IMG/VR virus record: IMGVR_UViG_2778261505_000002
Strand: one strand, 5' to 3'
Length of the DNA stretch: 64,000 bases
From: a virus
Lineage: Duplodnaviria > Heunggongvirae > Uroviricota > Caudoviricetes
Made by a program: the position numbers and the translations under genes
The notes under the pieces: generated by a model
Seen by the model: only the letters and a program-made list of their open reading frames with translations
Database searches by the model: none
What the model was told of the DNA's origin: nothing
In this document: piece by piece, positions 12,341 through 38,510 of the stretch
Layout of the letters: each line of letters begins with the position of its first letter
Position numbering within the stretch: the stretch's first letter is position 1

Positions 12341-12341
12341 T

Positions 12342-12729: not shown

Positions 12730-12738
12730 TGCGAAGTT

Positions 12739-12754
12739 CCCCTCACTTGAGGGG
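12739..12754. terminator. Hairpin between convergent genes (candidate bidirectional terminator)
   Basis: CCCCTC-ACTT-GAGGGG stem-loop between the Rz1 stop and the stop of the minus-strand GNAT gene. Confidence 0.4.
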
Positions 12755-12760
12755 AGTACA

Positions 12761-13282: not shown

Positions 13283-13289
13283 GAGTAAA

Positions 13290-13559
13290 CTACTCCATGC
13301 TTTTCAGACGATCAGCAGCTCGTTTCAGCTTGTCGTTCGGTGCCGGAGGATTGCTTATAGCGTCCATAACCAGATTCCAGGATTCTTCATTCAGAACTAG
13401 TCTACGGTGTTGCTCTATAACTTTCACGGCACGTTCAGATGCACTGCTAACCATAAACTGAGTAATGCTCTGGTTAGACATTGCGGCAGCTTCCTCGATG
13501 ATGCTTTTATCGTCATCGGTTAATCTCAAATCGATGCGCTGCTTTTTTAGTGCTGACAT
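13290..13559 (-). CDS. RHH antitoxin (TacA/DUF1778-like) of the GNAT toxin
   Basis: About 90 aa; start set at the ATG preceded by AGGAGG (track ORF extends to 13598); operonic with and upstream of the GNAT gene. Confidence 0.75.
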   Translation of the reverse strand: MSALKKQRIDLRLTDDDKSIIEEAAAMSNQSITQFMVSSASERAVKVIEQHRRLVLNEESWNLVMDAISNPPAPNDKLKRAADRLKSME

Positions 13560-13877
13560 GTATTCCTCCTGATGGCCGTGATGTAGGAAGGCCATCAATC
13601 TCCTCTGTTCAAACTGAGTTTTCGACTCAAAAATTACTTTAAAAGGCTATAGCCCATTACGTGTGCATTATCAAATTGTGTACGGCATATCACCGTACTT
13701 GTAATATAGAGGTCATTGTTACTTTTTTCAACAGACAAATACAAGCTATGTTTGCCAATTGTTAATCACAACCTACCATTTAACCTTTACACCGCAGCCG
13801 TAGGCATTTAGGCTATATCACATATAAGAAAACAAGTTGTTTCAGACGATAATTATATACGCAAAGGGAACTCTCCA

Positions 13878-14546
13878 ATGACCAAGATCTTTGTGGTTGG
13901 CGGCACAAAGGGCGGGCCTGGCAAATCCACCGTTGCCCAGCAAATTGCCGTTTGCCTGAAAGTCAAAAAGAAGAAGAAGGTTTATATTACCGATATAGAT
14001 ATTCAGCGCACGACAACGAGCTGGTGTGAAGACCGTCGACAGAACGAAGACCTTGAGCTGATTCCTTTTGCATACGTTCAGGATGACATCATTAAGCACC
14101 TAAAATCGCTTCAGGGTAGAGCTGAGTTTGTAGTGGTAGATGCTGGTGGCTTCGACTCCGAAATTCAGCGACAAGCGATGCTGATGGCTGACGTTATCAT
14201 TATCCCGCTGCGTCCTAAGCGTCGTGATTTGAAATCTTTACGTGACATCGATCCTATTATCGACAATGTTCGCAATGTAAACGATAAAGTGAAGGTCCGC
14301 GCGGTCATGAACCAGTGCCCGGCTTTGCCATCACAAGTGTCTCGCATTCTGGCGGCTAAAGAGATTGTTGAGACGTTTGGAATCGAGTCTGCGCCAGTCA
14401 ATCTATATAACCGCAACGTCTATGATGATGCGGAAGAGTCTGGTCGTTCTATCTTTGAAATGACCGGTAGCGAGCGCGACAAAAAGGCGGAAGCCGAGTT
14501 TGAAGAATTTGTAGATTATCTGTTGAGTCTGGAGGAAGAAGAATAA
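13878..14546 (+). CDS. parA: ParA-family partition ATPase
   Basis: Deviant Walker A (GGTKGGPGKST); 222 aa; followed by a small basic ParB/ParG-like gene whose start overlaps the parA stop. Confidence 0.85.
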   Translation: MTKIFVVGGTKGGPGKSTVAQQIAVCLKVKKKKKVYITDIDIQRTTTSWCEDRRQNEDLELIPFAYVQDDIIKHLKSLQGRAEFVVVDAGGFDSEIQRQAMLMADVIIIPLRPKRRDLKSLRDIDPIIDNVRNVNDKVKVRAVMNQCPALPSQVSRILAAKEIVETFGIESAPVNLYNRNVYDDAEESGRSIFEMTGSERDKKAEAEFEEFVDYLLSLEEEE

Positions 14547-14905
14547 TGTCCATGAAAATGGGTGACCTAGCAAAGCGCAAAGAGCCTGATGCACCGGCTA
14601 AGAACACAACTCCTTTGCGCCAACCAGTCAGACCACAGGGACGCCCGACTCGTGGCAAAGAGAAAATTAAAAGCCGCACAATGTCACTGGAGGACGAATA
14701 CTTCGAACTGCTGGAGATGATGAAGTTCATCCCTCGCTTCGAGAAGTTCACTCGTTCTGACGTGATTCGAGCAGCCATTTTCCATCTGGCAGAGAAGTCA
14801 CCGCAGGAAATCGAGGACATCGTGAAATTGAATGAGGCGATCACCGCTGCCGATGTCACGATGCGTACCGATGAAATCAAACGAGAGTTGATGAAGAAAG
14901 GTTAA
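14546..14905 (+). CDS. Small centromere-binding partition protein (ParG/ParB-like, type Ib)
   Basis: 119 aa, basic N-terminal tail, operonic with parA (overlapping start/stop). Confidence 0.6.
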   Translation: MSMKMGDLAKRKEPDAPAKNTTPLRQPVRPQGRPTRGKEKIKSRTMSLEDEYFELLEMMKFIPRFEKFTRSDVIRAAIFHLAEKSPQEIEDIVKLNEAITAADVTMRTDEIKRELMKKG

Positions 14906-14910
14906 AAATC

Positions 14911-14941
14911 ATGCATTGGCGCGTACATTGCGCCAATGCAT
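14911..14941. terminator. 12-bp perfect hairpin between convergent genes (terminator or protein-binding site)
   Basis: ATGCATTGGCGC-GTACATT-GCGCCAATGCAT; a T-run follows on the minus strand. Confidence 0.5.
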
Positions 14942-14957
14942 AACTACAGTGTCAGCT

Positions 14958-15725
14958 TTATGCCGCGCTAACACTATGTTCAGTCCTAACCACCCCAACC
15001 TTCACAAAAGGGCTACCGTAGCTTGGTGGCTTCTTGATTAATTTGCCTACATACAGTTTTCTAATATGCTCATCGGCTATTCTGCCAACAAATTCATAAC
15101 GTTTTGTGTCGGGGCCAAGAGCTATATCCCTTGTAAAGTACTGCTGAGAACCGGCTTTGACCCAGCATTCAATCTGATAAACTTCCATTATCAGCCCACC
15201 ATATGTAGCGTAGGCATATTTGAGATTCTCGTCTCTTGGAACCTTTGCCCATACGCCACGCGTAGCTTCATATAATGCCAGAGCGGACATTCCTGACTTG
15301 TAGGTGCTGTTTAGCAGGAAGGCAAGACCGGCGTGCTCAGGAGCAATTTCAGTTTCCTCTTGCAGCACTAAGTGATGGTAGGCGTCTAGTGATATTCTGC
15401 CCATCATGGAACCACTTCCTCGTACCTTATTCGTAAGCTCTCCGACCCCCATAAGGTCGATGCATGTCGCCTCAACAAGTTTGGCTGTGGTTTCATCCAT
15501 ACCATGACGAAGTATATCTATGCCTAATTTTTTATTAGCCAAAAGTTCTTTGATCCGCATGGATTTGGGAGAGTCATCGGGATACTTGATGTGATCGAGA
15601 CAACGAGTCGATTTGCCTTTTCCTATGTAAAACGGTCTTTTCATCTTGTCTTCTGTATCATAGAGACAGTAAACATAGTATTTAGCCTTATCCAATGATC
15701 TCGCGTATACCGATAAATCGTCCAT
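14958..15725 (-). CDS. GIY-YIG nuclease-domain protein
   Basis: N-terminal YVYCLYD...PFYIGKGK motif (GIY-YIG); 255 aa; isolated on the minus strand. Confidence 0.6.
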   Translation of the reverse strand: MDDLSVYARSLDKAKYYVYCLYDTEDKMKRPFYIGKGKSTRCLDHIKYPDDSPKSMRIKELLANKKLGIDILRHGMDETTAKLVEATCIDLMGVGELTNKVRGSGSMMGRISLDAYHHLVLQEETEIAPEHAGLAFLLNSTYKSGMSALALYEATRGVWAKVPRDENLKYAYATYGGLIMEVYQIECWVKAGSQQYFTRDIALGPDTKRYEFVGRIADEHIRKLYVGKLIKKPPSYGSPFVKVGVVRTEHSVSAA

Positions 15726-15837
15726 TATTGCATCTCTTTGCTACTGACTAATGCGTTCTATTTTACACATAAGTTTTTAATCAATTTAACAGGCTCAAAG
15801 TGTAGAGCTTCTGGGCGTCTAAGACGACAAGTTATGC

Positions 15838-19470: not shown

Positions 19471-20253
19471 ATGAAAGACGAAATTCAGAAATTAGCCTGC
19501 GACATCATTGATAAAACTGGTTTAGAAATCAGCGAGAGCAATCGGCTAGACATCATTGAAAAAGCCGTAAAAACAGCAATGGATCATATCGCCACTCGTT
19601 TGGTCGAGATCCCGCTACCGGGGCTACCTTATCTGAAGGTTAAGTTACACGTATGGGGTGAACCTTCTTGTGCACGGCGTTCTGCATTAGTTGTTTTTAT
19701 TAGCAAAGAAAACCCGATCAGTCTTAAAGTGCAGGTTGGGGCATGGATGGATGGCAAAGTGATCTACACAAATACCGTTTTTTGTGCGTCAAATGACAGT
19801 ATTATTGAAGAGGCTATTCAAGAATCACTTCTAACTATGCATAGCTTATTTTTGCTGGAAGACAAGCAAAACTACGAAGAGTACTTACGGTCGATAAAAG
19901 GTGAGAGAACATTGTCACTTAAAGCCGATTTCGTTACCCCGACAAACCTGTTGGAAGTCTTGCTTAATAAAGGGGCTAATGATGCCGTAAATGTAATCAG
20001 AGAGAGTGAGTATGCGTCTCTTTGCGACATGTGCAAAAGCCAGTTGGATCTGGTGCATATCGTTATTGATGCTGGGAAGGCATGTGATGGCGTAATGGCG
20101 GAGTTTGCTGGGAAGATGGTCAGGATTGCTAACGAATTACCGATGATAGAGCAAGAGGCTAAATCATACGCCACCAATCATGTCACAGAGCTTCTTGTCC
20201 CCTATCGCTTAGAAAGCGATCAGCGCAAGATGATTAGCTGGGGAAGTTGGTAA
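19471..20253 (+). CDS. Hypothetical protein
   Basis: 260-aa ORF with upstream palindromic motif and GGAG RBS. Confidence 0.45.
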   Translation: MKDEIQKLACDIIDKTGLEISESNRLDIIEKAVKTAMDHIATRLVEIPLPGLPYLKVKLHVWGEPSCARRSALVVFISKENPISLKVQVGAWMDGKVIYTNTVFCASNDSIIEEAIQESLLTMHSLFLLEDKQNYEEYLRSIKGERTLSLKADFVTPTNLLEVLLNKGANDAVNVIRESEYASLCDMCKSQLDLVHIVIDAGKACDGVMAEFAGKMVRIANELPMIEQEAKSYATNHVTELLVPYRLESDQRKMISWGSW

Positions 20254-20308
20254 GCTCTCAGTGTGTCGTTTTTTACGCAAATAATGATAGGTAAGCACAA
20301 GATTATTT

Positions 20309-20791
20309 TTGGCGGTAATTGTGAAAGCTGATTTGTCAAAAATCCCCTCTATTTCAGGAAATAATGGTTATTCACTTCGTTGTGAGGAAGTAAAGATAAA
20401 CGGTGAGTCGGCATATTGCAGCTACTCCGTTTGCCAGCACACCATTCTTGCCTTCAAAGAAAACCGTCTTCCTCGAACTTCATTCCAGTCGTGCGCAACC
20501 GCTATCAAAGCAGGCAAATGCAAGGCGTTAAAAATGATGGTTGAAGAGATTCGTAAAGGAGAATCTCTGTATTTCGAAGATATGACCGCGCTCATTAAGG
20601 AGGTTGAAGAACGGAATAAACAAGCCAGAACTTTAAAACGAAAACGTGACAGTGTAACGATTAATAGCATGGTTAAGAAGAGCGCCACATCACAAACAGC
20701 GATCACTGACGTGTATGCGGCGTTGCTTGAAGAAACAACAAAAGAAACACATGAGCAAATCGATCAACATATGGAGGTAAAACAACAATGA
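20309..20791 (+). CDS. Hypothetical Cys-rich protein
   Basis: 160-aa ORF; several Cys in the N-terminal half; 3' end overlaps the ligase start. Confidence 0.4.
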   Translation: MAVIVKADLSKIPSISGNNGYSLRCEEVKINGESAYCSYSVCQHTILAFKENRLPRTSFQSCATAIKAGKCKALKMMVEEIRKGESLYFEDMTALIKEVEERNKQARTLKRKRDSVTINSMVKKSATSQTAITDVYAALLEETTKETHEQIDQHMEVKQQ

Positions 20792-23699: not shown

Positions 23700-23774
23700 G
23701 ATGGTGTAGCTCAGCGGTAGAGCAGTTGGCTGTTAACCAACTGGTCGGTGGTTCGAATCCACCCACCATCGCCA
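23700..23774 (+). tRNA. tRNA-Asn (anticodon GTT)
   Basis: Cloverleaf folded by hand: 7-bp acceptor stem GATGGTG/CACCATC, anticodon loop CTGTTAA, GGTTCGAATCC T-arm, encoded CCA. Confidence 0.85.
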
Positions 23775-23779
23775 ATTTA

Positions 23780-23866
23780 GGGGAGTTAGTCCGTAGAGGT
23801 AGCGGTGTAGACTGTAAATCTACTGTCATTGCGACTCGGGTGGTTCGACTCCATCACTCCCCACCA
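23780..23866 (+). tRNA. tRNA-Tyr (anticodon GTA), long variable arm
   Basis: Acceptor GGGGAGT/ACTCCCC, anticodon stem-loop GTAGA-CTGTAAA-TCTAC, long variable arm, T-loop TTCGACT, CCA; D-arm pairing is atypical. Confidence 0.75.
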
Positions 23867-23870
23867 AATT

Positions 23871-23946
23871 GCCGGTTTAGCTCAGTTGGTAGAGCGCCTG
23901 CCTTGTAAGCAGGATGTCAGCGGTTCGAGTCCGTTAACCGGCACCA
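23871..23946 (+). tRNA. tRNA-Thr (anticodon TGT)
   Basis: Acceptor GCCGGTT/AACCGGC, D-arm GCTCAGTTGGTAGAGC, anticodon loop CTTGTAA, T-loop TTCGAGT, CCA. Confidence 0.85.
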
Positions 23947-24163
23947 ACACAACAGGAAAGAGCATTGAAAACCGCCGAGACTGCCCTGTTTTAAGCGTAA
24001 GTCCGTGCAAACGTCATACAGTGCTCTTTTCGTTGTGGTTGATGCGCAGACTGATGCGCGGAAAGAAATGCCCCAGCGACACACGAGGCGAGTTCACACA
24101 CTGCAATGCAGTCAGTAGCCGGGGTCGCTAAGCCGGAGATCAGTACCGGTAACCACAACAATT

Positions 24164-24250
24164 GGAGAGTAGGGAGCATGGTGCTCAAGCGGTCTTGAAA
24201 ACCGTCCCATTGTGCAAGCGATGATGGTTCGATTCCATTACTCTCCGCCA
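24164..24250 (+). tRNA. tRNA-Ser (anticodon TGA), type II with long variable arm
   Basis: Acceptor GGAGAGT/ACTCTCC, anticodon loop CTTGAAA, 17-nt variable arm, T-loop TTCGATT, CCA. Confidence 0.75.
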
Positions 24251-24405
24251 GACACAGCGTTGAGCGGTTTGGCCTTTTAATCACCCAGATTAAGACTCCG
24301 CTAACATAAACCAGACCGCTCAACGCTGTGATAGACAATTACGGCAGACGTTCTTAACCATAGCTTGCTAACATCCTAGCAACACTTTTTTTCAGCGCAA
24401 AATTC

Positions 24406-24428
24406 AAAGGGGCTTCGGCCCCTTTTTT
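24406..24428 (+). terminator. Rho-independent terminator
   Basis: AAAGGGGC-TTCG-GCCCCTTTTTT: GC stem, tetraloop, T-tract; closes the tRNA cluster. Confidence 0.85.
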
Positions 24429-24471
24429 GCAACTGAAAGAGTCAAGTCTACGAACTTTGTAGGAAGAAATA

Positions 24472-24822
24472 ATGACCAGCAAAGAGAACACACCACTAAA
24501 AGTCACCCCTGAACACATTGAACAACTCATTCAAAGTGAACATTATTTCACTGCATATGATGCCAGCCACGGGGATAACTTCATCTCTGTTTACAATTCA
24601 AAAACAGATATCGACAAAGGTCATGAGTCGTTAAAACTCTTAACGTTCTGCGTTATGGTTCTCAAAAATGGATATACCGTAACGGGAAAATCTGCGTGCG
24701 TAAGACCAGAAATCTTCAACTTTGATGTTGGTCGCGAGTACGCTCGAAAAGATGCTATCGATCAAATCTGGCCCCTGGAAGGCTATCTCCTGAAGCAAAA
24801 GTGGCATGAGGCAAAGCAATGA
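24472..24822 (+). CDS. Hypothetical protein
   Basis: 116-aa ORF; stop overlaps the glutaredoxin start. Confidence 0.45.
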   Translation: MTSKENTPLKVTPEHIEQLIQSEHYFTAYDASHGDNFISVYNSKTDIDKGHESLKLLTFCVMVLKNGYTVTGKSACVRPEIFNFDVGREYARKDAIDQIWPLEGYLLKQKWHEAKQ

Positions 24823-25064
24823 CGATCACTATCTACGGACGAGATAACTGCTCATACTGCAAACGTGCGGTCGAGCTGGCGAAGCAACTAAAGGGACATG
24901 GCTACGGTGATTATGAGTACATCGACATCACCACTGCCGGTATCGACAAGGAAAAACTAAGTGAAATTGTTGGTAAACCGGTAGAGACTATCCCCCAAGT
25001 GCTGATCGATGGCCAACCGATTGGCGGATACACTGAACTGGCTGCATACGTCAGCACCCTCTGA
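24819..25064 (+). CDS. Glutaredoxin (NrdH/NrdC-like redoxin)
   Basis: 81 aa with CSYC redox motif near the N-terminus and TIPQV...G motif; thioredoxin-fold size. Confidence 0.8.
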   Translation: MTITIYGRDNCSYCKRAVELAKQLKGHGYGDYEYIDITTAGIDKEKLSEIVGKPVETIPQVLIDGQPIGGYTELAAYVSTL

Positions 25065-25066
25065 TT

Positions 25067-25095
25067 TTAACGGCTCACAGGAGCCGTTTTTATTC
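25067..25095 (+). terminator. Rho-independent terminator
   Basis: AACGGCTC-ACAG-GAGCCGTT followed by TTTTATT. Confidence 0.75.
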
Positions 25096-25274
25096 CCACC
25101 AAACTCACTCCCGTTTCCCTTAAAATTCAAAAAACAACGTCAAAATGATTCCATACCTACTATGTATGGAATCATTACTGAAAATGAGTTACTTTTACTC
25201 TTGATCCTATAAGAATCTATGCCTAATATACTGTTTACTTATACAGTGAATCGGCGTAACTCGGTGATTGTCAT

Positions 25275-26378
25275 ATGAAAAATAGCTTTGACAGAGCACG
25301 CGCTGCGGAGAACACCTCAAAAGAGGCGATTGAGTATCTCGAAAGAGCATCTCAAATGCAGGCCGTTATGATCTCGCAGGTTAGCAATGATATGAGATTC
25401 TCGGACGCATTCATGTTATTTACTCGCTTATCTCTGCTGATAACCAGACGTCGGCCAGAGATCGCTGTTCATTGTATTTTGATACATGTTTTGCCGCACA
25501 TTGCCGATGTAAAAGTAAGTGACATTAATAGGTTCATGGTGAACCAACTGGTCAACCCACTAATACTGGATGGCAAAATTGTTATGGGCCGCCGCGTTTT
25601 CTCTCTGATGAAGCAGTTCCTTAGCTGGTGCGCCTTCCAGGGGATGATAGACGTGTCACCGTTAAACGATATGTCACTTAACAAAGTTGCCGGTGGCGCA
25701 AAGCCCACACCTCGCGAGCGGAAGCTGACCGACGCAGAGGTATGGGTGTTCTGGAATATATGGGACTACTTCAATGTGTGCGCTGGTACAAAATGGGCGG
25801 CCAGGCTGTGTCTTGTATCCGCAAGACGACCTGACGAAGTACTGCGGGCTAAAAAAAGTGAGTTCAATCTTAAGCGTGGGGTTTGGAATCAAGGCAAGAG
25901 GAACAAATCTGCCCGTGAGCATTCGCTGCCTTTAAGCACATTAATGCGCACATGTATTGAAGAGTTGTTCGAATACGGTAAAGGCAGCCAGTGGCTCGTG
26001 CCTTCGAATAAAAAAATCGGGAAAGACCTTCCTATGTCTAAAGTGGCAATAGCCCAGGCATTACGTCGTATTCTGGAACGACCAGAACTGATGGAGCTTG
26101 AGCCATTTACACCCCGAGACTTGCGCCGTACTGCGCGTAGTTACTTCCCAGCATTAGGCATAAGCCAGGAGGTATCACGTAAAATCATGAACCACAGTCT
26201 TGAGGGGATAGATCGAGTCTACGACCGGCACGATTATATGGACGAGATGCGAGACGCCTTAGAAAGTTTCTCGACGTACATCGCATCAATCGTAGAGCAA
26301 CCGGATTTAGACGAAATTGACCACAAATTCAAGGGAGATCGTCTATCAACAGAGCTTATTCGTGTAAATTTTTCATAG
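25275..26378 (+). CDS. Tyrosine site-specific recombinase (integrase or resolvase)
   Basis: C-terminal catalytic-domain pattern (…RRPDEV…, FTPRDLRRTARSY, MNHSLEGIDRVYDRHDY) consistent with the R-H-R-Y signature. Confidence 0.7.
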   Translation: MKNSFDRARAAENTSKEAIEYLERASQMQAVMISQVSNDMRFSDAFMLFTRLSLLITRRRPEIAVHCILIHVLPHIADVKVSDINRFMVNQLVNPLILDGKIVMGRRVFSLMKQFLSWCAFQGMIDVSPLNDMSLNKVAGGAKPTPRERKLTDAEVWVFWNIWDYFNVCAGTKWAARLCLVSARRPDEVLRAKKSEFNLKRGVWNQGKRNKSAREHSLPLSTLMRTCIEELFEYGKGSQWLVPSNKKIGKDLPMSKVAIAQALRRILERPELMELEPFTPRDLRRTARSYFPALGISQEVSRKIMNHSLEGIDRVYDRHDYMDEMRDALESFSTYIASIVEQPDLDEIDHKFKGDRLSTELIRVNFS

Positions 26379-26759
26379 AGACTTTATGGCCTCAACAACC
26401 TTTTGTGATGCGCCTTTCTCTTTACCGAATCGCTCGTTATATGCAGCAAGAACCTGTTTTTCGTCCTCGTTAAGAGGAGCGGTGCCTTCTTTGTATAAAA
26501 ATGCTGCGAGTTCAGGTTGGCGTTCTTCCAGCACCATCATCATAAGACGACTTGGCTCAATACCCAGCGCCAGCGCCAACGGACGAACCTTATCGATAGG
26601 CAAAGGAATTTTGCCACTTTTAATTAAAGAAAGGTTGTTGGCATTTTTATAACCAATAAGTCTGGCTATTTGGGCCTGACTCATAGGTGAGGATTCAATC
26701 AGCCCTGCGATAAAAGCAGCATAGCGACTTTCTATAAATTCAATCTTGTTGTCAGACAT
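26373..26759 (-). CDS. XRE-family helix-turn-helix transcriptional regulator
   Basis: HTH segment (MSQAQIARLIGYKNANNLSLIKSGK); start set at internal ATG (track ORF extends to 26789); divergent from the downstream AT-rich region. Confidence 0.65.
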   Translation of the reverse strand: MSDNKIEFIESRYAAFIAGLIESSPMSQAQIARLIGYKNANNLSLIKSGKIPLPIDKVRPLALALGIEPSRLMMMVLEERQPELAAFLYKEGTAPLNEDEKQVLAAYNERFGKEKGASQKVVEAIKSL

Positions 26760-27010
26760 TGTTACAACCTTTGCGCGTTCAATTCTCACTGGTAAGTGCT
26801 TACCGATATTACATCAAAGGTTAGGGTTGTAAAGCTATTATCATTTTTTTCGATAGGCACTTAAAAGACCGGTTAAAGGCCATTGCACGGAGAAAAATTA
26901 GCCCAAAACAGGTAAGAAAATTAACTTGTATATGATATGAATGTATTCAGTATTGATATAAATTTTAGTAGTATTCCTTACCATAGTATAAGTTAGAATG
27001 GATTGATTGA

Positions 27011-27223
27011 ATGAACACCACTATTTCCAGCCTAATCGCTCTTGAGATCGGACACGTACAGAAATTAGCTGATGAGTGTGTAGCTGACATCCTCACCGAT
27101 CTACCGAATGAGCAGATTCAGGTTGGTGTGAATGACACAACTGGCTTTATATTCGAATTTAACAACAAACGCTTCACGCTTCTCAATACCGGCTCCGGGT
27201 CTTTAGCCGTCAGAATCTGTTAA
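27011..27223 (+). CDS. Hypothetical small protein
   Basis: 70-aa ORF followed by an inverted repeat (CTGCGCGAA...TTCGCGCAG). Confidence 0.35.
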   Translation: MNTTISSLIALEIGHVQKLADECVADILTDLPNEQIQVGVNDTTGFIFEFNNKRFTLLNTGSGSLAVRIC

Positions 27224-27321
27224 CCCCTCTTCTCCCTGCGCGAATGGCTTAGTTCCCTGTTCGCGCAGTGCTACATTAAACACACTAGTAAATAATTTGT
27301 TTTCATAACAAAGGATTAGCC

Positions 27322-29430
27322 ATGTCTAAAAAACGTTCCATCAAAGAGGTTCAGGACTTCCGTGACAGTGTAAAACGAGTAGTCGCTCTCCTTTCAGGTA
27401 AAAACATCCCTGTTGCAGAACGAGGGGACGACGCTTATGTTCGCTATAACGATGATGGAGAGCCAATTCTCGTAAACATCCCATCAATCCCGGATAACGC
27501 AACACCGGCATTGATGAATGCTGTGCGCGGATTTCTCGATCATGAGGTTGCTCACATTTTGTTTACCGATATTCGTGTGTCCAACAAAATGAGAGAAAAA
27601 GGACGCGTTCCTTCCTGGTCGCTATGGAATGCCTTAGAAGACGTGTTCATCGAGCGAAAAATGGGTCAGGTCTTTAACGGAACAAGACGTAATCTGATGG
27701 CAACTCAGCGCCTTATAATCGAAAAAGTCTTTAAACCAAAGGCTTCAGAGGCTATTGCTTATTGTGGCAAAGATCAGCGCGCGCTTTTTCTAAACTTCTT
27801 TCTCTGTCCGGTTGTAAGAGCCTGGGATGGCCAAGCACCGTTCGTAGATTTCATGGATGAATATTGGCCTGTCATTGAGAAACCAATTTCATTATTAAAA
27901 GAACATGGTATCGATGTGGCCGTGCGTAACATGTCTTGCACCGAGGATTGTGTAAAGGTGGCTGCGACCATAGCTAAGATCCTCAAAGACACTGAAAGTG
28001 AAAGCAAAGGTAAGGAGTCAGCTCCGGGAAAAACTTCCGATCCTTCAGACGCTGACCAGACGGATGCCTCTGGAGAAAACAGTGAAGACAACGAAGATCA
28101 TGAGACACCCTCAGTGTTAGATAATCACAAATCTATCAAATCAGAATCACACAGTAAGCACAAACATGATAATAACGACAGTGATGATTCAGATAATTCT
28201 GAATCATCAGAAACAATATTCGATGATACAGAAAATGATAAAGAGGTATCAGATTCTGATGCTTCTGATAACGCGGCGTCAGAATCATTAACCGCTGACC
28301 ACGAAAAAAGAAAAACGACAGAAGACGGCTCTTCAGATATCCCAACTCCGTCAAAAATGAGTCTGGAAGAGGCTTTAGAGGAGTTGGATAGCATGGAAGA
28401 TGAAGTCGGAGGCATGACAGAAGATGCGCTATCCGAAACGATTAAAAGCGAGTTAACAGAAAGCTCGAAAAGCGAATACAGGCCATACAATCGCTCATAC
28501 GACTTCATCGGCTCGATTGATCAGGCAGAAGCCCATATCAAACGGCTTATTAAAACATTCTCCGATATTGATTTGGGAGGATATCCAATCAGCCGCTATC
28601 GCATCGTTCCTGAAGGCAACCAGCTCTTCGACAAATATATTGAAAAGCATCTTTCGTCAGGTGTTTCGTCGACGCTGGCAAAAGACCTGGAGCGAGCAAT
28701 AGCAAGCAGAAACAGAGTTCAGTTTATACCGGGCCAGCGTCGGGGGCGCATTCATGGTTCTAGTATCTACAGATTAGCAATGAATGATGCTCGCGTGTTT
28801 CGTAAAAAAGAAGAATCTAAAGCCGTTAACGCCTGTGTTCAACAAGTGATTGATTTATCAGGTTCAATGAGTGGTATAACGATACAATTGGCTCTTGCAA
28901 GTGCATATACCATCGCCGATGCCCTTGATCGAATAAATGTTCCCAACATTATCACCGGCTTCACTACATTTGGTAGTCATATGGCGGCAGGAGAACTTAA
29001 GGCTGTCAAGTATGAGTTCTCTCGCTTTGAATCTTTAATGCTACCTATCATCAAAAATTGGAATGAAAAGGTAAATTCTCGCGAAGTTCGCTCACGTATG
29101 GGGTGCGTAGGCTACACATTCCCACTTCTTAATAACGTGGATGGTGAAAGCATAGCCAGCCTTGCATCGTTATTTTCCGGTCGCTTGGAGGACAGGAAGA
29201 TCATGCTTGTTCTGAGTGATGGCGCGCCGTGGGCTGTTGGGAGAGGTTTTGACGCTCATTTGCGTTCAGTTGCGAAGCAAATTGAAACGCAGACTGATAT
29301 TGATTTGATGGCAATTGGCATCATGACTGACGCACCGGAGAGATTTTACTCAAATCATGCCCTGGTAACGAGCGTTGATAGTCTTGGTTCATCTGTAGTT
29401 ACTGAACTATCTCGTATCATTTTAAAGTGA
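27322..29430 (+). CDS. vWA-domain protein with acidic Ser/Asp-rich linker (CobT-like partner of an AAA+ ATPase)
   Basis: C-terminal MIDAS-type motif (VIDLSGSMSG ... LVLSDGAP); ~130-aa low-complexity acidic stretch (SDDSDNSESSE...); directly upstream of a MoxR/CobS-like AAA+ gene. Confidence 0.65.
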   Translation: MSKKRSIKEVQDFRDSVKRVVALLSGKNIPVAERGDDAYVRYNDDGEPILVNIPSIPDNATPALMNAVRGFLDHEVAHILFTDIRVSNKMREKGRVPSWSLWNALEDVFIERKMGQVFNGTRRNLMATQRLIIEKVFKPKASEAIAYCGKDQRALFLNFFLCPVVRAWDGQAPFVDFMDEYWPVIEKPISLLKEHGIDVAVRNMSCTEDCVKVAATIAKILKDTESESKGKESAPGKTSDPSDADQTDASGENSEDNEDHETPSVLDNHKSIKSESHSKHKHDNNDSDDSDNSESSETIFDDTENDKEVSDSDASDNAASESLTADHEKRKTTEDGSSDIPTPSKMSLEEALEELDSMEDEVGGMTEDALSETIKSELTESSKSEYRPYNRSYDFIGSIDQAEAHIKRLIKTFSDIDLGGYPISRYRIVPEGNQLFDKYIEKHLSSGVSSTLAKDLERAIASRNRVQFIPGQRRGRIHGSSIYRLAMNDARVFRKKEESKAVNACVQQVIDLSGSMSGITIQLALASAYTIADALDRINVPNIITGFTTFGSHMAAGELKAVKYEFSRFESLMLPIIKNWNEKVNSREVRSRMGCVGYTFPLLNNVDGESIASLASLFSGRLEDRKIMLVLSDGAPWAVGRGFDAHLRSVAKQIETQTDIDLMAIGIMTDAPERFYSNHALVTSVDSLGSSVVTELSRIILK

Positions 29431-29525
29431 ACAAAACAGCCTTAATGATAAGTAACCACTTACGATAGATGATGATATATTTATATAAGAAGTTGAACGC
29501 TCATTAGAGAACAAAGGAAAAACGC

Positions 29526-30761
29526 ATGACGACTACTGCACTGCAAAATGAAAAAAATCCTTCTGATTACCTTGTTTGCAAGTGGTGCGGCAAATCATTT
29601 CACTATTTTAAGTCCCATGTAGCCAATGGTAATTGCGAGGGCATTCCTGAGTCAGTAAAAGATGCCGATCCTGACACCGTACTGAAAATGTACACAACGC
29701 AGTTTCCAGATGAACCAACGCTATCGAAAAAGGCACTTGATGCAATTCAAGCTAAACGTGCCGAGCAAAAAAGCGAAATGGCCAAATCTTCTGGCTTGAC
29801 CAGTAGCCCTGGCTACACAGGCACAGTTGAGTACAAGACAGATCTGGTCGCAGCTCACGAACTGCTAAACGTAACGGTGGAAGAACTCGGAACAAAACGT
29901 GGGACGCCGCTCATGGTTAGCGTCAACGTCAATACGCCGTATCCAGAGTTCGTTCCCGAAGTGAAGAAAGGCTACGTATATGGCGACTTCGAACTGATCA
30001 AAGATATTTTCATGATGCTTGAACTTGGCATACCTGGCTATTTGTGGGGTCATGCAGGAACAGGCAAATCGTCATTGCCTACACAGCTATGTGCTTTGCT
30101 CAATCGTCCGTTGATCCGTGCCCAACATACAGCATCAATGGAAGAGGCACATGTTACGGGGCAAATTCTGGCGCGTGATGGCTCTACGTATTTCGAACCT
30201 GGCTTGCTTGCGCTCGCAATGAAGCATGGCTGGGTTTACCTCGCGGATGAATACGACTTTGCGTTTCCACAAATTCTTGGCGTGTATCAGCCAGTGCTGG
30301 AAGGTGAAGCGTTGGTCATCAAAGAGGCAACTCCAGAATGGCGTCGCATTACTCCGCATGAACGGTTTGCTTTCATTGGCACTGGCAACACGAACGGATC
30401 TGGTGATGAAACCGGCTTGTACCAGGGTACAAACATCCAGAACGCCGCGAACTTTTCGCGTTTTGGCATCGTTTCGAATGTGAAATACATGAGCAAAGAC
30501 GCAGAGATCAACATGCTGACAAATGCAGGCATCGTGGATGAATACGCTGAAAAGATGGTTAAGTTTGCCGGTATCGTTCGCGATGGATACGAAGAACACC
30601 TCATTAGTCAGCCAATTGGCCCTCGTGAACTTTTGTTGTCGGCCAAGATTGGAATGATGCGAGGCGACTTTGTGACAGGTATTGAGCGTTCTTTCATTAA
30701 CAAACTCCCTTCAGCTTCTGCACAAGCGGCTCGTGAAGTTGTTCAAAAAATATTTGGTTAA
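29526..30761 (+). CDS. AAA+ ATPase, MoxR/CobS-like
   Basis: Walker A GHAGTGKSS, Walker B (WVYLADEYD), sensor region; N-terminal Cys/His cluster (CKWCGKSFHYFKSH). Confidence 0.7.
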   Translation: MTTTALQNEKNPSDYLVCKWCGKSFHYFKSHVANGNCEGIPESVKDADPDTVLKMYTTQFPDEPTLSKKALDAIQAKRAEQKSEMAKSSGLTSSPGYTGTVEYKTDLVAAHELLNVTVEELGTKRGTPLMVSVNVNTPYPEFVPEVKKGYVYGDFELIKDIFMMLELGIPGYLWGHAGTGKSSLPTQLCALLNRPLIRAQHTASMEEAHVTGQILARDGSTYFEPGLLALAMKHGWVYLADEYDFAFPQILGVYQPVLEGEALVIKEATPEWRRITPHERFAFIGTGNTNGSGDETGLYQGTNIQNAANFSRFGIVSNVKYMSKDAEINMLTNAGIVDEYAEKMVKFAGIVRDGYEEHLISQPIGPRELLLSAKIGMMRGDFVTGIERSFINKLPSASAQAAREVVQKIFG

Positions 30762-30941
30762 TCGTGCGTAAAGGATGTTTCGGCTCTCTTATCGCTGCTT
30801 CTGAAACTGGTAAGGCTTGTCTGGTGTGTCCAGACAAGCCCGATTGTCACCAATCAGCAAAAGAAGTTGCGATTTCGATGCATGGGAAGTTCGTAGGCTT
30901 CCCCAATGACAAAATCAAAAAAACCAGAAAGGTAAAAACAC

Positions 30942-33900
30942 ATGAAGGCACTGATGGTTCGAACTGACTTCTCACTTGGGGAGTCGGCTCTAAAAGCAGA
31001 AAACGCGGTGAAGATTGCCAGAGAAGCTGGCTACACCGCTGTAATTTCAGCAGATAGCATGAATATTGCGAGCGTTATTCCACTACAACGTGCCGCTGGT
31101 GACGACATGGCGGTTATTTGTGGTGTGAAACTAAACATTGTTGATGATCCCACATACGAGCACCGGGCTAAACTTGCTAAAGAATCTATGAGATGTATGG
31201 AATCATTAGAGCGAGGACGTAACTACTCGTTTACCGCTCTAATTAAAAATGAGAAAGGATATCGCGACATCTGCGAACTAATGACGGCGGCCAACACACG
31301 AGAACAGTTCTACTTTGTACCGCGTCTCTCGCTCGAACAGTTGGTTTCTACATATGCCAAAGGCAACATCATCCTGCTTACTTCCGACATCGGTAGCGTG
31401 TTCCAACGCAACGATTTTGCAAAAATCATAAGCACACTGATTACAGCGGGTGGAAAAGACAACTTCTATAGTGTGGTTTATCCGCACCCTACCCCATTCT
31501 ACGACCAGATTAACGTCCGGGCGATGAAAGTCGCCAGCGCATTGAAAATAGAGCCAGTGGCGTTCTATCCCGCTTATTACGAATCGATCGACGATGCAGA
31601 CATTAAAGACATTGCGCACATGGTTACGAACAACATCAAAATCGACCAGCCGCATCGTCTGCGTATCCCCCACCAGCGAGATAACGCCGTCAATGGTCGC
31701 CGCCATCTCCTTGAGGCGCTTAAAGCCTTCTCCGTTCGCATGGATGTGCCGGTAACAGCTGCAATGGCCTCAACAACGCAGGATACCATTATCGATGCCT
31801 GCACATGGCGCTGGCATGAATTGCCGCCAGCACTGCCAAAGATGGCAGACGACGAGCCTGCAACGCTGATGAAACTGGCTGTTGCAGGGCTGCGTAAACG
31901 TCTTACCACAAAAGAGTTTGGATACACACCACCTGCTTCTGAGAACAGGGTTTATGTTGAGCGGCTAAAGTACGAAATGGACACGCTGACTCGCCTGGGA
32001 TTCTGTGGTTACTTCCTGATGGTACGCGATCTGATGAATCACAGCCGTGAAACTGGCATTCCTGTCGGGCCTGGTCGTGGTTCCTCCGCTGGATCTCTGG
32101 TGGCATGGTGCATAGGCATAACCAACGTCGACCCAATCCGTCACGGTCTTCTGTTTGAGCGTTTCATCAACCCTGAGCGTCTCGACTTGCCAGATGCGGA
32201 TTTGGACTTCAGCCAGGCACGTCGCCATGAGGTGATCGAGTATCTGAATGAACGATACGGCGAAGATTACGTTGCAGGTATTCCTAACTTCACATATCTG
32301 GGCGCAGCCTCTGCACTACGTGACACCGCTCGTATTTATGGTGTGGAGTCCGCAGATATGGCGGTATCAAAAGAGCTGAGGAACGTCGAGGATGATAGCC
32401 TTCCATTGGAAGAGCTGCGCGAACAACTGGCAAGTCTCGACAAATACGCGACAAAATACCCTGATGCATTCAATGCAGCCTGCAAGTTACAAAGCCTTAT
32501 GCGTGGCTTTGGTAGACATGCGGCAGGGATGATTGTAGCAGGTGTTCCTCTGACAGAACGTACACCGGTTGAACGACGTGGTGACGCGCGTTGTATCGCA
32601 TTTGACAAGCGTTACTGCGAGGCTATGGGCCTAATTAAGCTGGACGTGCTTGGCCTGGCAACTCTCGATTTGCTCGATAGTGCAAAACGCTACATAAAAG
32701 AGAACACAGGTGAAGATATCAATCTTGATGCCATTTCTCTTGAAGATCGCAAGGTGCTGGATGGTTTTGCTGCTGGGTACACTCAAGGTGTTTTCCAGCT
32801 TGAATCAGGCCCAATGCGCAAGCTGCTTAAAGATTTAGGTGGTGGAATTGAGCCAATGAGCTTTAAAACGGTCGTTGCTACGACTGCGCTCTTCCGGCCG
32901 GGGCCAATTCAGTCAGGCATGTTGGATGATTATGTTTCTGTCGCCAAAGGCTTTATGACGCCGGAATCATTACACCCCGTTCTTGATGAACTTACCGCAG
33001 AAACAAATGGCGTGATTCTTTATCAGGAACAGACGATGAACGCGACTCGATTGCTTGCTGGCTTCACAATGGCTGAAGCTGACGGCGTTCGTAAAGCGAT
33101 CGGCAAAAAAGACATGGAGAAAATGAAGAGCATGGGTGAGAAGTTCATCGTTCAGGCTCAAGCTGGCTGGATAGACGTTGAGCTGGAAGATGGCACTACA
33201 CAGCGCATTCACCGTGCGGAACATTTTAAATGCGAAGACGGAACACTGAAAACTGTCGAAGAGGCACTTGAGTACGGCGCAAAACTACCTATAAACGCAG
33301 TACGCGTTACAGCGTCACATCCAGGGCTATCAGAGATGAAAGCGAAGGAGATCTGGACCGCATTCGAAAAGAATGGTGCCTACCAGTTCAACAAATCACA
33401 CTCTGTTGCTTACTCCTTAATCAGTTATCAATCTATGTGGTTGAAAACTCATTATCCCGCAGAGTTTTTCGCTGCTGCTCTCACTATTCTTGGCGAAGAT
33501 AAACACCAGGGGCTGGTTAAAGATGCGCTGACCTATGGTATTCGCGTATTGCCACCAGACGTTAACGTGTCATCTAACCGAATCGAGATCCGCACGCTTG
33601 AAGATGGCAGCCAGGTGCTGTATGCGCCCTTCTCTGCTGTGAAAGGGTGTTCTGAGAATGGCTGCCAAGCCATCATGAGAGCGCGAGAAAAAGTTGGCGG
33701 CAAATTCGAGTCACTGGCGCAATTCGAAGAAGCTGTCGAGAAACGTGCCTGTAATAGTCGAGTGCGCGAATCACTGCAAAAAGTAGGTGCGTTTGCATCC
33801 ATCGAGCCAGGTAGTCTGCCAGCAACTGATCCAGAGCGTCTCCGCGACCAGGCTGAATTGATGGGAAACCTTGTCATAGACGCAGTTAAAGCCTCACGTC

Positions 33901-34460
33901 CGTTTGAGATGAACCCCAAACGTTCGGCTGAAATTAACGCACTCATGACACGGATGGCGGCTGAAATGGGCTTAGGTGATGAACTAATCCGCCCCAGCAT
34001 TGGTATTAAGCCGAAAATCATGATCATTCTGGACAATGCGAACGGCAATGATGCTCGAACCGGTTACTTCATGGAGAACGGATACGACGACTTTAAGGCC
34101 AAGCTATTGACGGCTGGAGATTTACGCATGGGCGATCTCTATGTCACAGGCGTTTGCAAGAAGGTTAAAGACAAAGAAAAAGACTACACCAAAGACGAGA
34201 TCGGCCAGTTCACCGACTTTATACGTGAAGAGATCAATCTGGTGCGTCCGACCTATGTGCTGACGTGTGGCAGCCGGGCAACGGCATTGTTTAACAACAA
34301 AAACAAGCCATCCGATTTGGTCGGCAGGAAGGAGTATCTTCCAGACCTTGACGTTACTGTCTTTTACGGGTTTAACCCCAACATTCTTTACTTCAGACCT
34401 GAAGAGGGAGAACGACTAGAAGCGATATTAGCCGACGTAGCAGAAACTATTAAGACGTGA
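30942..34460 (+). CDS. dnaE: DNA polymerase III alpha subunit (DnaE-type, with PHP domain)
   Basis: 1172 aa; N-terminal PHP-like start, polymerase core motifs GPGRGSSAGSLVAWCIGITNVDP and FERFINPER...DADLDF, downstream HhH-like segment. Confidence 0.9.
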   Translation: MKALMVRTDFSLGESALKAENAVKIAREAGYTAVISADSMNIASVIPLQRAAGDDMAVICGVKLNIVDDPTYEHRAKLAKESMRCMESLERGRNYSFTALIKNEKGYRDICELMTAANTREQFYFVPRLSLEQLVSTYAKGNIILLTSDIGSVFQRNDFAKIISTLITAGGKDNFYSVVYPHPTPFYDQINVRAMKVASALKIEPVAFYPAYYESIDDADIKDIAHMVTNNIKIDQPHRLRIPHQRDNAVNGRRHLLEALKAFSVRMDVPVTAAMASTTQDTIIDACTWRWHELPPALPKMADDEPATLMKLAVAGLRKRLTTKEFGYTPPASENRVYVERLKYEMDTLTRLGFCGYFLMVRDLMNHSRETGIPVGPGRGSSAGSLVAWCIGITNVDPIRHGLLFERFINPERLDLPDADLDFSQARRHEVIEYLNERYGEDYVAGIPNFTYLGAASALRDTARIYGVESADMAVSKELRNVEDDSLPLEELREQLASLDKYATKYPDAFNAACKLQSLMRGFGRHAAGMIVAGVPLTERTPVERRGDARCIAFDKRYCEAMGLIKLDVLGLATLDLLDSAKRYIKENTGEDINLDAISLEDRKVLDGFAAGYTQGVFQLESGPMRKLLKDLGGGIEPMSFKTVVATTALFRPGPIQSGMLDDYVSVAKGFMTPESLHPVLDELTAETNGVILYQEQTMNATRLLAGFTMAEADGVRKAIGKKDMEKMKSMGEKFIVQAQAGWIDVELEDGTTQRIHRAEHFKCEDGTLKTVEEALEYGAKLPINAVRVTASHPGLSEMKAKEIWTAFEKNGAYQFNKSHSVAYSLISYQSMWLKTHYPAEFFAAALTILGEDKHQGLVKDALTYGIRVLPPDVNVSSNRIEIRTLEDGSQVLYAPFSAVKGCSENGCQAIMRAREKVGGKFESLAQFEEAVEKRACNSRVRESLQKVGAFASIEPGSLPATDPERLRDQAELMGNLVIDAVKASRPFEMNPKRSAEINALMTRMAAEMGLGDELIRPSIGIKPKIMIILDNANGNDARTGYFMENGYDDFKAKLLTAGDLRMGDLYVTGVCKKVKDKEKDYTKDEIGQFTDFIREEINLVRPTYVLTCGSRATALFNNKNKPSDLVGRKEYLPDLDVTVFYGFNPNILYFRPEEGERLEAILADVAETIKT

Positions 34461-37436: not shown

Positions 37437-38510
37437 ATGGCAAAAGGAAAATCCGCACTGGCACTTGCTCTGAAAAAGAAAATCGGTAGCAACGACGAAA
37501 TTCAGAAAGTAACTCATTGGATTGATACAGGCTTTCCACCGTTAAACAAAGCTATTTCTGGTCGTTACGATGGCGGCTTCCCATGTGGTCGTATCGTCGA
37601 AGTATTCGGTCCTCCAAGTGCAGGGAAAACGTTCCTTGCAACAGCAGCGATGATCTCCGCTCAAAAACAAGATGGTCTGGCGGTATTCCTCGATCATGAA
37701 AACAGTTTTGACGTTGGCCTGGCTGTCGCCAATGGCCTGAACGCAGATGAGGATGACGGTCAGTGGGTATACAAGCAGCCTGACACCTTCGAAGACTCTG
37801 TAGAGTTGATCGGCACAATACTTAAATTGGTACGTGATGAAGAGCTTATCCCTGAATCAGCACCTATCTGTATCGTGGCTGACTCACTTGCGTCTATGGT
37901 TCCGAACTCCAAAGCCGAGAAGTTCGAAAAGATGGCTGAAGGCACTGCCAAAGACAAAGATCAGCTAAACATGAACGACAATACGGCACTGGCTCGTGCG
38001 ACAAGTGCGAACTTCCCTACTCTGGCTTTGTGGGCACGCAAATACAACGCCTGCATCATCTTCTTGAATCAGGTTCGCACAAAAATCGGTGTAATGTTTG
38101 GCGACCCTACTACGTCGCCAGGTGGAGATTCACCGAAGTTCTACGCTTCTGTACGTATCCGTCTTGGTGCATCGGTGATGAAGGATGGTAAAGAGAAGAT
38201 CGGCCAGGACGTAGGCGCAGAATGCATCAAAAACAAAGTTGCACCACCGTATGGCAAATGCACCTGGAAATTCTACTTCGATCCTACTCGTGGCCTCGAC
38301 GTTATCGAATCGCTCGTCGAGTACATGCTGGAAGAAGGATACCTGCCAAAGAACGCCAGCGGGCGAGTTGAAATTGGTGACAAGAAATACACCAAATCAC
38401 AGATCGTCGAGATGTATCGGGAGAAGCCACTGGCTGAAATCATTGCGGCTTTGCAGGCAATCGACGACCGAAGAGCAAAAGACAACCCCACCGAGTCAGT
38501 AGAAGAGTAA
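37437..38510 (+). CDS. RecA/UvsX-like recombinase
   Basis: Walker A (FGPPSAGKT), Walker B-like IIFLNQVR, and RecA-signature GGDSPKFYASVRIRL. Confidence 0.8.
   Translation: MAKGKSALALALKKKIGSNDEIQKVTHWIDTGFPPLNKAISGRYDGGFPCGRIVEVFGPPSAGKTFLATAAMISAQKQDGLAVFLDHENSFDVGLAVANGLNADEDDGQWVYKQPDTFEDSVELIGTILKLVRDEELIPESAPICIVADSLASMVPNSKAEKFEKMAEGTAKDKDQLNMNDNTALARATSANFPTLALWARKYNACIIFLNQVRTKIGVMFGDPTTSPGGDSPKFYASVRIRLGASVMKDGKEKIGQDVGAECIKNKVAPPYGKCTWKFYFDPTRGLDVIESLVEYMLEEGYLPKNASGRVEIGDKKYTKSQIVEMYREKPLAEIIAALQAIDDRRAKDNPTESVEE

Follow-up and report, generated by a model that had tools for sequence, protein, structure and literature searches.

A CobT/CobS-like vWA and AAA+ gene pair next to the replication genes of an SSU5-type phage-plasmid of Escherichia coli

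The gene pair, its domains and its distribution

The window analysed here is the whole 64,000-nt stretch of DNA from IMG/VR record IMGVR_UViG_2778261505_000002, a virus of the Caudoviricetes. At positions 27322–30761 it carries, on the plus strand, a gene for a CobT-like protein with a vWA domain, followed by a gene for a CobS-like AAA+ ATPase of the MoxR class. The identity of the region with Escherichia phage CMS-2020a is 99.8%, with phage Cyrano 98.5% and with Salmonella phage SSU5 74.7%, and this places the window among the SSU5-type phage-plasmids of E. coli. The locus itself is 97–99.8% identical in phages CMS-2020a, Cyrano and PhiR41_1. The first-pass annotation of this DNA had described a vWA protein with a MIDAS (metal ion-dependent adhesion site) and an AAA+ ATPase; both open reading frames (ORFs) were confirmed at the coordinates it gave, with Pfam matches to CobT_C and AAA_5, and the best structural matches of the two proteins are indeed CobT (PDB 9uka_G) and CobS (PDB 9ujv_A), as it had proposed.

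The upstream gene (27322–29430, plus strand) encodes the CobT-like adaptor, a protein of 702 aa made up of an N-terminal domain, an acidic linker, a helical middle segment and a vWA domain with the MIDAS. The protein matches phrog_1576 (E ~1e-300) and the solved CobT 9uka_G (E 4.7e-13), and Pfam recognises the CobT family over residues 9–294 (E 4e-27) and CobT_C, which is the vWA domain, over residues 492–701 (E 7e-82). The N-terminal domain (aa 1–222; 27322–27987, plus strand) is homologous to that of CobT and has an intact HExxH motif. The vWA domain (28792–29427, plus strand) could be aligned to the solved CobT vWA domain 21vt_A (E 1.7e-15) and contains the MIDAS residues D511-L-S513-G-S515, T548/T549 and D633. 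We aligned 64 distantly related adaptors sharing 27–61% identity with the window protein (alignment A9). Throughout this set D511-x-S513-G-S515 was invariant, T548/T549 and S632-D633 were present in at least 90% of the sequences, and the vWA_CoxE model matched 19 of them.

The N-terminal domain is followed by a low-complexity linker rich in Ser, Asp and Glu, delimited by its composition (aa 223–385; 27988–28476, plus strand). Its 163 residues include 32 Ser, 26 Glu and 25 Asp, the net charge is -37 and the entropy is 3.50 bits, compared with 4.1 bits in the flanking domains. An acidic stretch had been noted earlier and called extreme. The stretch is real, but the adjective is misleading: a linker rich in Asp, Glu and Ser lies at the corresponding place in solved CobT (9uka_G), Asp and Glu together make up 26–41 per 100 aa in three RefSeq CobT proteins, and the median is 47 per 100 aa in 127 full-length representatives. 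The acidic linker is thus a family trait and nothing peculiar to the window protein. Among close relatives the linkers are only 36–48% identical, whereas the flanking domains are 75–84% identical; indels of up to 73 aa occur, and adaptor lengths include 702, 743, 757 and 774 aa. Judged by this pattern, the linker would behave as a disordered tether in which composition alone matters, and this agrees with the coupling of MoxR–vWA pairs via flexible charged linkers (PMC7159879).

The downstream gene (29526–30761, plus strand) encodes the CobS-like ATPase of 411 aa. It matches Pfam AAA_5 over aa 173–293 (E 2e-15), phrog_249, a group labelled 'porphyrin biosynthesis' (E 1e-107), and CobS 9ujv_A (E 1.1e-25), which is followed in the ranking of PDB matches by midasin, CbbQ and NorQ. 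The AAA+ module with its lid (aa 142–411; 29949–30758, plus strand) aligns to residues 39–315 of CobS 9ujv_A, with Walker A at 30048–30071 and Walker B (D241-E242) at 30246–30251. In 22 homologues Walker A (G175..K181), Walker B, N288, R312, R352 and R367 were invariant; AAA_5 was recognised in all 22 relatives and CbbQ_C in 16. On these profile matches the homology of the pair to CobS and CobT is strong and not a product of chance.

The locus was found in 244 of 5,426 complete E. coli genomes, and it was plasmid-borne every time. In the same genomes the count for the element's dnaE gene is also 244 and that for its helicase/primase 253; the pair therefore belongs to the core gene set of the element and is not cargo. 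In PLSDB the vWA domain was detected on 1,020 plasmids, mostly of ~100–115 kb, from Klebsiella, Escherichia, Acinetobacter, Enterobacter, Yersinia and Salmonella.

A CobT/CobS-like pair of this kind is already known. RefSeq names the products of near-identical loci (99.5–99.9%) 'cobaltochelatase CobT-related protein' and 'AAA family ATPase', and a viral cobST cluster was described between 2005 and 2021 (PMC1079782, PMC3037004, PMC8651126). The present contribution is a set of differences from the true chelatase, which may not have been spelled out earlier. The names given to the pair vary among records. In the Cyrano record (OV696614) the equivalent of the window locus (12323–15762) carries the annotations 'dimethylbenzimidazole phosphoribosyltransferase' and 'cobalamin synthetase'. 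These functions belong to the CobT and CobS of Salmonella nomenclature, which are not related to the pair (compare PMC8749415), and the naming looks like a misannotation caused by a collision of names. Other records label the pair 'porphyrin biosynthesis protein'.

The HExxH motif of the adaptor and the zinc finger of the ATPase

The HExxH motif of the adaptor N-domain is H74-E75-V-A-H78 (27541–27555, plus strand), and it was invariant in all three of our alignments, A5, A6 and A9. A second acidic motif, E106-D107-V-F-I-E111 (27637–27654, plus strand), lies on the next long helix, and its residues E106, D107 and E111 were invariant in the 64 representatives. The alignments in which the HExxH and second-motif residues do not vary include Rhizobium phage RHph_X66, Vibrio phage ICP2 and the protein of cyanophage P-RSM4 annotated as 'peptidase'. 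When 1.84 billion cluster representatives were scanned in full by HMMER, using the N-domain as query, 1,123 proteins reached E ≤0.001, and motifs were counted in the best 149 of these, chosen as representatives at ≤50% identity. HExxH was present in 148 of the 149, the lone exception being a fragment; it was followed by [ED]Dxx[IVL]E in 144, and DxSGSM was found in 125. A third homologue search, with the N-domain of the Rhizobium phage, gave only 10 matches.

In true CobT the homologous stretch is different. Solved CobT (9uka_G) and three RefSeq CobT proteins read D-(S/A)-(M/F/A)-A-L instead of HExxH, and no HExxH was found anywhere in the three RefSeq proteins when they were scanned over their full length; E111 is kept in true CobT too. 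The invariant Glu together with the two His residues suggests, as far as conservation can tell, that the site may serve catalysis rather than metal binding alone.

The AlphaFold2 model of the N-domain, a confident one (pLDDT 89.4), begins with a long helix and a small sheet, after which come the HExxH helix and the acidic helix. Fold searches with the N-domain did not confirm a peptidase fold, and neither a zincin fold nor a match to a peptidase family model was established. The adaptor does match phrog_459, labelled 'peptidase' (E 1e-6), and the cyanophage homologues are annotated in the same way. The HExxH motif is solid; the peptidase assignment is not.

A profile of the N-domain built from five sequences also matched the anti-CRISPR protein AcrIIA26 (PDB 9zq6_B) with an E-value of 3e-4, over aa ~96–184 (window positions 27607–27870). 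In this alignment, through the stretch 'LNxVEDxFIE', the ED pair of the adaptor stands opposite E49/D50 of AcrIIA26, residues that are essential for blocking the PAM site of Cas9 in a protein described as having a novel fold (PMC13089141). With a profile of 143 sequences the E-value of the match was 5.6e-3 and the matched fragment ~45 residues, and AcrIIA26 was not returned by a Foldseek search of the PDB with the N-domain. The similarity covers one helix and did not gain from the deeper profile, so that it may be taken as a weak lead.

The first ~140 residues of the ATPase have no counterpart in true CobS. They contain the N-terminal Cys/His cluster that had been pointed out in the first-pass annotation, made up of C18, C21, H26, H31 and C37, within a zinc-finger module of aa ~14–70 (29565–29735, plus strand) that is most like Ros/MucR. 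The core C-x2-C-x4-H-x4-H was invariant in 42 diverse homologues, and the consensus of the module, KI-x-C-x2-C-G-x3-H-x4-H-L-x3-H-P-x6-Y-x3-F-P-x-A-P-x2-S, was present in 96 of the 120 homologues listed. In the SSU5 clade a Cys one position further on (C37) takes the place of the last His. When a profile of the 42 N-termini was compared with PDB sequences, the top match was the Ros DNA-binding domain (2jsp, E 1.7e-4). The conserved Cys and His residues aligned with C24, C27, H37 and H42 of Ros, which we take to be the zinc ligands of the Ros87 structure. Comparison of the profile with a Ros sequence by hhalign gave a probability of 94.3%. Pfam ROS_MUCR (PF05443) recognised 7 of 22 members (best E 1.5e-4), the window protein itself falling below the model, and a fold search with the zinc-finger module did not retrieve Ros.

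Matches of the ATPase to Staphylococcus and Listeria phage proteins were not counted as members of the family, because they reach only ~25% identity and cover the AAA module alone. In a Kayvirus the large protein adjoining the ATPase match has neither HExxH nor MIDAS.

Gene neighbourhood in the window and in relatives

The two genes lie on one strand, 95 bp apart, with AAGGA ahead of each of them, and no terminator-like site was found on the plus strand between cobT, cobS and dnaE. The first-pass annotation had spoken of an operon. Adjacency, common strand and the uninterrupted gap hold, and they are consistent with co-transcription of cobT and cobS, although an arrangement read from the sequence does not prove it. 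The pair is probably transcribed together with dnaE as well.

Upstream of cobT there are a tRNA cluster, a glutaredoxin gene, a tyrosine integrase gene (25275–26378), a divergent gene for a helix-turn-helix (HTH) repressor (26373–26789) and a conserved ORF of 70 aa (27011–27223, plus strand; phrog_2627). A small ORF occupies the equivalent position in relatives, and the 70-aa ORF is probably the first gene of the cobT/cobS transcription unit. The gap of 220 bp between the repressor-like gene and this ORF (26790–27010) is likely to be the switch region controlling the unit of the 70-aa ORF, cobT, cobS and dnaE. The tRNA cluster, at 23700–24250, comprises four genes (Asn-GTT, Tyr-GTA, Thr-TGT and Ser-TGA); at the equivalent site of Cyrano only those for Asn, Thr and Ser are annotated.

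Downstream of cobS follow an ORF of 67 aa, dnaE, a gp32-type single-stranded DNA-binding protein (SSB), a 5'-3' exonuclease and recA. The 67-aa ORF (30764–30967, plus strand) starts 2 nt past the cobS stop codon and overlaps the start of dnaE by 26 nt. It is rich in Cys (C5, C19, C22 and C28), belongs to phrog_6337 (E 3e-45) and weakly matches phrog_3616, an ORF of 167–200 aa just upstream of dnaE in relatives, whose N-terminal part it resembles. The idea that it is a vestige of the sigma-like gene seen in relatives was rejected, since BLASTP was negative and PHROG groups the ORF with the pre-dnaE ORF of the relatives. The dnaE gene (30942–34460, plus strand), a conserved neighbour, encodes the alpha subunit of DNA polymerase III, in which Pfam recognises PHP, DNA_pol3_alpha, finger and HHH_6.

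Some side observations were made on these and other genes of the element. The window DnaE has 1,172 aa; its PHP, polymerase, finger and HHH_6 parts are followed by a tail of ~200 aa with no domain match, and no uracil-DNA glycosylase (UDG) domain was found in it at E ≤0.01. In the DnaE proteins of three distant relatives (locus L089, 11387–14809; L090, 10739–14083; L091, 11471–14854) a precomputed UDG match (PF03167) lies at the C-terminal end. The recA-type gene of the window (37437–38510) encodes 357 aa, while the recA position in plasmid NZ_CP062854 and in Cyrano is taken by a gene of 2,340 bp (L002, 22438–24777) annotated as a LAGLIDADG homing endonuclease or as RecA; this suggests an intein or a homing-endonuclease insertion in recA that is polymorphic among SSU5-type elements. 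In NZ_CP062854, which is near-identical to the window, the trimethoprim-resistant dihydrofolate reductase DfrA51 is encoded at 19897–20373 (~57835–58311 of the window), flanked by the genes for thymidylate synthase and an AAA ATPase. The gene is a member of the nucleotide-metabolism block of the element and not an inserted resistance cassette (compare PMC12217456).

In metagenomic and phage relatives with ~45% identity in the ATPase, the order (integrase/HTH)–cobT–cobS–(sigma-like)–small ORF(s)–dnaE–gp32–exonuclease–recA is kept. A pattern scan for diverse viral loci gave only near-identical SSU5-type contigs, and the distant context was therefore taken from contigs that encode homologues. Two lineages are independent of this one: in ICP2 the genes for primase, helicase and polymerase lie downstream of the pair, and in cyanophage P-RSM4 the pair lies between gp46/47 and the genes for the gp45 clamp and the gp44 clamp loader.

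In three of the relatives a gene with a Sigma70_r2 domain scoring above the Pfam gathering threshold comes directly after cobS, with stop and start codons touching or overlapping; a fourth relative has a weak match. In addition, three proteins of the Methylobacterium type carry the CobT N-domain and acidic linker fused to Sigma70_r4, again above the gathering score. At the sole locus of this type that we examined (L092), the vWA part is a separate ORF. The sigma-related genes were noted at L089 10182–10856, L091 10185–10832, L003 8257–8901 and L092 1064–2104 and 5497–6123. Both associations are hints that the pair may be connected with the transcription machinery.

Proposed function and comparison with known systems

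Domain make-up, motif conservation, synteny and the lack of a chelatase context together point to an ATP-driven MIDAS/AAA+ protein remodeller of the MoxR–vWA kind that belongs to the replication or early module of the element. We give this reading a probability of roughly 0.45, and its details much less. The ring-forming ATPase would be the motor and the CobT-like protein its adaptor, the MIDAS gripping an acidic residue or a peptide of the client; ATP hydrolysis in the ring, passed on through the tether, would then pull or reshape that client. The general mechanism is that of MoxR–vWA pairs (PMC7159879). The HExxH...ED..E residues of the N-domain would form a metal site, possibly one that hydrolyses the client, and the Ros/MucR-like finger of the ATPase may bring the machine to DNA or to a partner bound to DNA. 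The client itself would probably be a replication or transcription protein associated with DNA.

Several points weigh against this reading. No functional study of any phage CobS/CobT was found in the literature, so that the function is deduced throughout. The synteny, as far as it lies inside one large lineage, is inherited and makes weak evidence for a link with replication; early and middle genes cluster anyway. The window itself has no sigma-like gene after cobS. The ATPases of cyanophages and ICP2 have no zinc-finger module, so that docking on DNA cannot be general. As to hydrolysis, only one of the 64 relatives touches a Pfam peptidase family, DUF2201_N, at E 1.7e-4 and below the cut-off. 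The absence of CobN from the host, on which the case against a chelatase partly depends, is a matter of general knowledge.

A bolder version of the remodeller would hold that phage 'CobT/CobS' is a distinct, DNA-docked, ATP-driven machine and not a chelatase: its MIDAS grips a replication or transcription protein, which an active HExxH centre remodels or cuts, and phages of a very large group (the 1,123 clusters found at E ≤0.001) share it as a core component of their early programme. Cellular CobT would then be a relative in which the catalytic HExxH was lost, the sigma fusions and neighbours would mark RNA polymerase or sigma as the client, and the likeness to AcrIIA26 would be a true evolutionary link. 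Taken as a whole, we consider this version unlikely.

Two other explanations have a rather small chance of being right. By the first, the pair is an assembly chaperone for the metal centre of one of the element's own metalloenzymes, such as NrdB with its di-iron centre, DnaE with its PHP domain or the metallophosphoesterase, in the manner of NorQ/NorD, CoxD/CoxE and CbbQ/CbbO. The element does encode NrdAB, a PHP-domain DnaE and a metallophosphoesterase; the ATPase matches the CbbQ and NorQ structures, CbbQ_C is found in most of its relatives and vWA_CoxE in part of the adaptors, and a metal awaiting delivery could be bound by the conserved HExxH...E. However, no metalloenzyme partner is common to all lineages, since ICP2 has a family A polymerase and the cyanophages a T4-type polymerase, and this explanation accounts for neither the Ros-like finger nor the association with sigma domains.

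By the second, which the first-pass annotation had put forward as a possibility, the pair is a host-takeover or anti-defence device that strips or cleaves a host protein early in infection, for instance a nucleoid protein, a defence sensor or a Cas-like effector. The place of the pair directly downstream of the integrase/repressor switch would make it probably one of the first lytic genes, and several phage lineages have it in early or replication blocks. It is general knowledge that Ros/MucR proteins bind AT-rich DNA, as H-NS does. Nevertheless, we found no positive evidence for this suggestion beyond the borderline match to AcrIIA26 over the E49/D50 helix, which fades with the deeper profile, and the acidic character of AcrIIA26 favours spurious matches. 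Counter-defence genes are usually small, variable and patchy, whereas this pair is large, core and syntenic with replication genes. PADLOC gave no real match, although its library holds defence and not anti-defence proteins: the adaptor had only a chance-level match to DrmE in its low-complexity region (E 9e-4, 15.9 bits), and the ATPase had none. Membership of a defence system was likewise rejected, PADLOC being negative and the locus core and syntenic.

It is very improbable that the genes are a genuine auxiliary metabolic pair, in which phage CobS and CobT work with a CobN of the host, or with a CobN/ChlH-like protein, so that more cobalamin is made in infected cells. In favour of it, the nearest relatives of known structure are CobS and CobT, and the Pfam matches to CobT and CobT_C are strong. 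The boost of host B12 is also the literature's own interpretation of viral cobST, offered there as speculation only (PMC1079782, PMC3037004, PMC8651126), in agreement with the earlier remark that the role of such pairs in phages is not established. Some related phages do have hosts with CobN, namely rhizobia, cyanobacteria and haloarchaea (PMC8651126).

The doubt about cobalamin metabolism that had been voiced at first is nonetheless well founded. The scores against the NCBIfam equivalogs are 7- to 11-fold under the cut-offs (TIGR01650 for CobS, 86.6 against 558.55; TIGR01651 for CobT, 66.7 against 759.05). Neither CobN nor any other cobalamin gene is among the 114 annotated features of NZ_CP062854, which include class Ia NrdAB, thymidylate synthase and DfrA51. 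Rfam gave no match at E ≤1 in 24200–31200, so there is no B12 riboswitch around the pair, and the neighbours (integrase, repressor, dnaE, gp32, exonuclease and recA) provide no cobalamin-pathway context. The near-invariant HExxH and the added zinc finger would have no role in a chelatase. More than 1,000 pair-carrying plasmids come from Klebsiella, Escherichia, Acinetobacter, Yersinia and similar hosts. To our knowledge, E. coli makes no corrin ring and has no CobN. The CobNST reaction requires CobN and hydrogenobyrinic acid a,c-diamide, a late intermediate of the aerobic pathway, whereas enteric bacteria, Salmonella among them, insert cobalt early via CbiK (PMC7242693). The pair is most likely not a working cobaltochelatase here, because neither the third, substrate-binding subunit, CobN, nor the aerobic corrin pathway is present. 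A conflict between the B12 account and class I ribonucleotide reductases had been pointed out before by Sullivan et al. (PMC1079782). The cobalamin reading is thus not supported, and the pair almost certainly does a different job.

A chaperone of virion assembly, for which the MoxR/vWA pair that drives tail development in the archaeal virus ATV is a precedent (cited in PMC7159879), is extremely unlikely, as the pair belongs to the replication block, far away from the element's genes for head and tail, and adjoins polymerase, clamp or primase genes in other lineages.

These results bear on the way in which viral genes are counted. Since 2005 cobS and cobT have been scored as 'auxiliary metabolic genes' in surveys of marine and gut viromes, as evidence that phages manipulate B12. 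If the pair does something else, such ecological interpretations are mistaken for a gene that is very common; it is present in more than 1,000 phage-plasmids of enterobacteria, Acinetobacter and Yersinia, hosts unable to use a CobNST chelatase, and its database names mislead. The HExxH motif, the Ros-like zinc finger, the links to sigma domains and the core status beside dnaE make the question of function testable by point mutants in E. coli. Since SSU5-type phage-plasmids carry resistance genes (dfrA51 in the near-identical plasmid), a core maintenance or replication factor of theirs is of some practical interest.

Compared with the cobaltochelatase, the ATPase belongs to one family with CobS, aa 142–411 aligning to residues 39–315 of 9ujv_A (E about 1e-25), and the adaptor shares with CobT the plan of N-domain, acidic linker and vWA/MIDAS as well as the Pfam families CobT and CobT_C (E about 5e-13 for 9uka_G and 2e-15 for 21vt_A). 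It differs in that HExxH is lost in the CobT of true CobNST and kept in the phage-type adaptor, and in that true CobS lacks the N-terminus of ~140 aa with the zinc finger. The gene order also differs: it is cobT–cobS in the phage type and cobS–cobT at three cellular loci with annotated true cobS/cobT. On plasmids of the alphaproteobacteria Cereibacter and Sphingomonas (L093, 972–5657; L094, 850–5624) the true cobS–cobT genes lie beside BolA-family and J-domain genes and not beside cob genes.

The MoxR–vWA pairs RavA–ViaA, NorQ–NorD, CbbQ–CbbO and CoxD–CoxE, and eukaryotic midasin/Rea1, likewise combine an AAA_5 ATPase of the MoxR clade with a MIDAS–vWA partner and have charged flexible segments. 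The clients of these systems are known, in contrast to that of the phage pair. We know of no HExxH N-domain or Ros-type finger reported in the partners of known MoxR–vWA pairs. The motif 'I-x-C-x2-C-G-x8-H-L-x3-H-x4-6-Y' of the ATPase module aligns with the zinc ligands of the Ros/MucR C2H2 domain (2jsp, PF05443). The module differs from that domain by an extra invariant His (H26), by a fourth ligand that in the SSU5 clade is a Cys shifted by one residue, and by its fusion to an ATPase instead of an oligomerisation domain. In the adaptor N-domain a small beta-sheet precedes the long helix that bears HExxH, and the acidic ED..E helix comes next, an arrangement comparable with that of zincins.

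The viral cobST cluster of T4-like cyanophages, ICP2, haloarchaeal tailed viruses and Rhizobium phages is the same pair of genes, and the window locus is a member of it (phrog_249, E 1e-107; phrog_1576, E ~1e-300). The boost of B12 published for this cluster does not fit the host of the window. The SSU5 supergroup, Rhizobium phage RHph_X66 included, has the Ros-like zinc finger added to the ATPase, while the cyanophage and ICP2 ATPases are without it. The architecture of the pair in RHph_X66, ICP2 and P-RSM4 is that of the window locus; the adaptors of ICP2 and P-RSM4 combine HExxH, acidic linker and MIDAS, as the window adaptor does.

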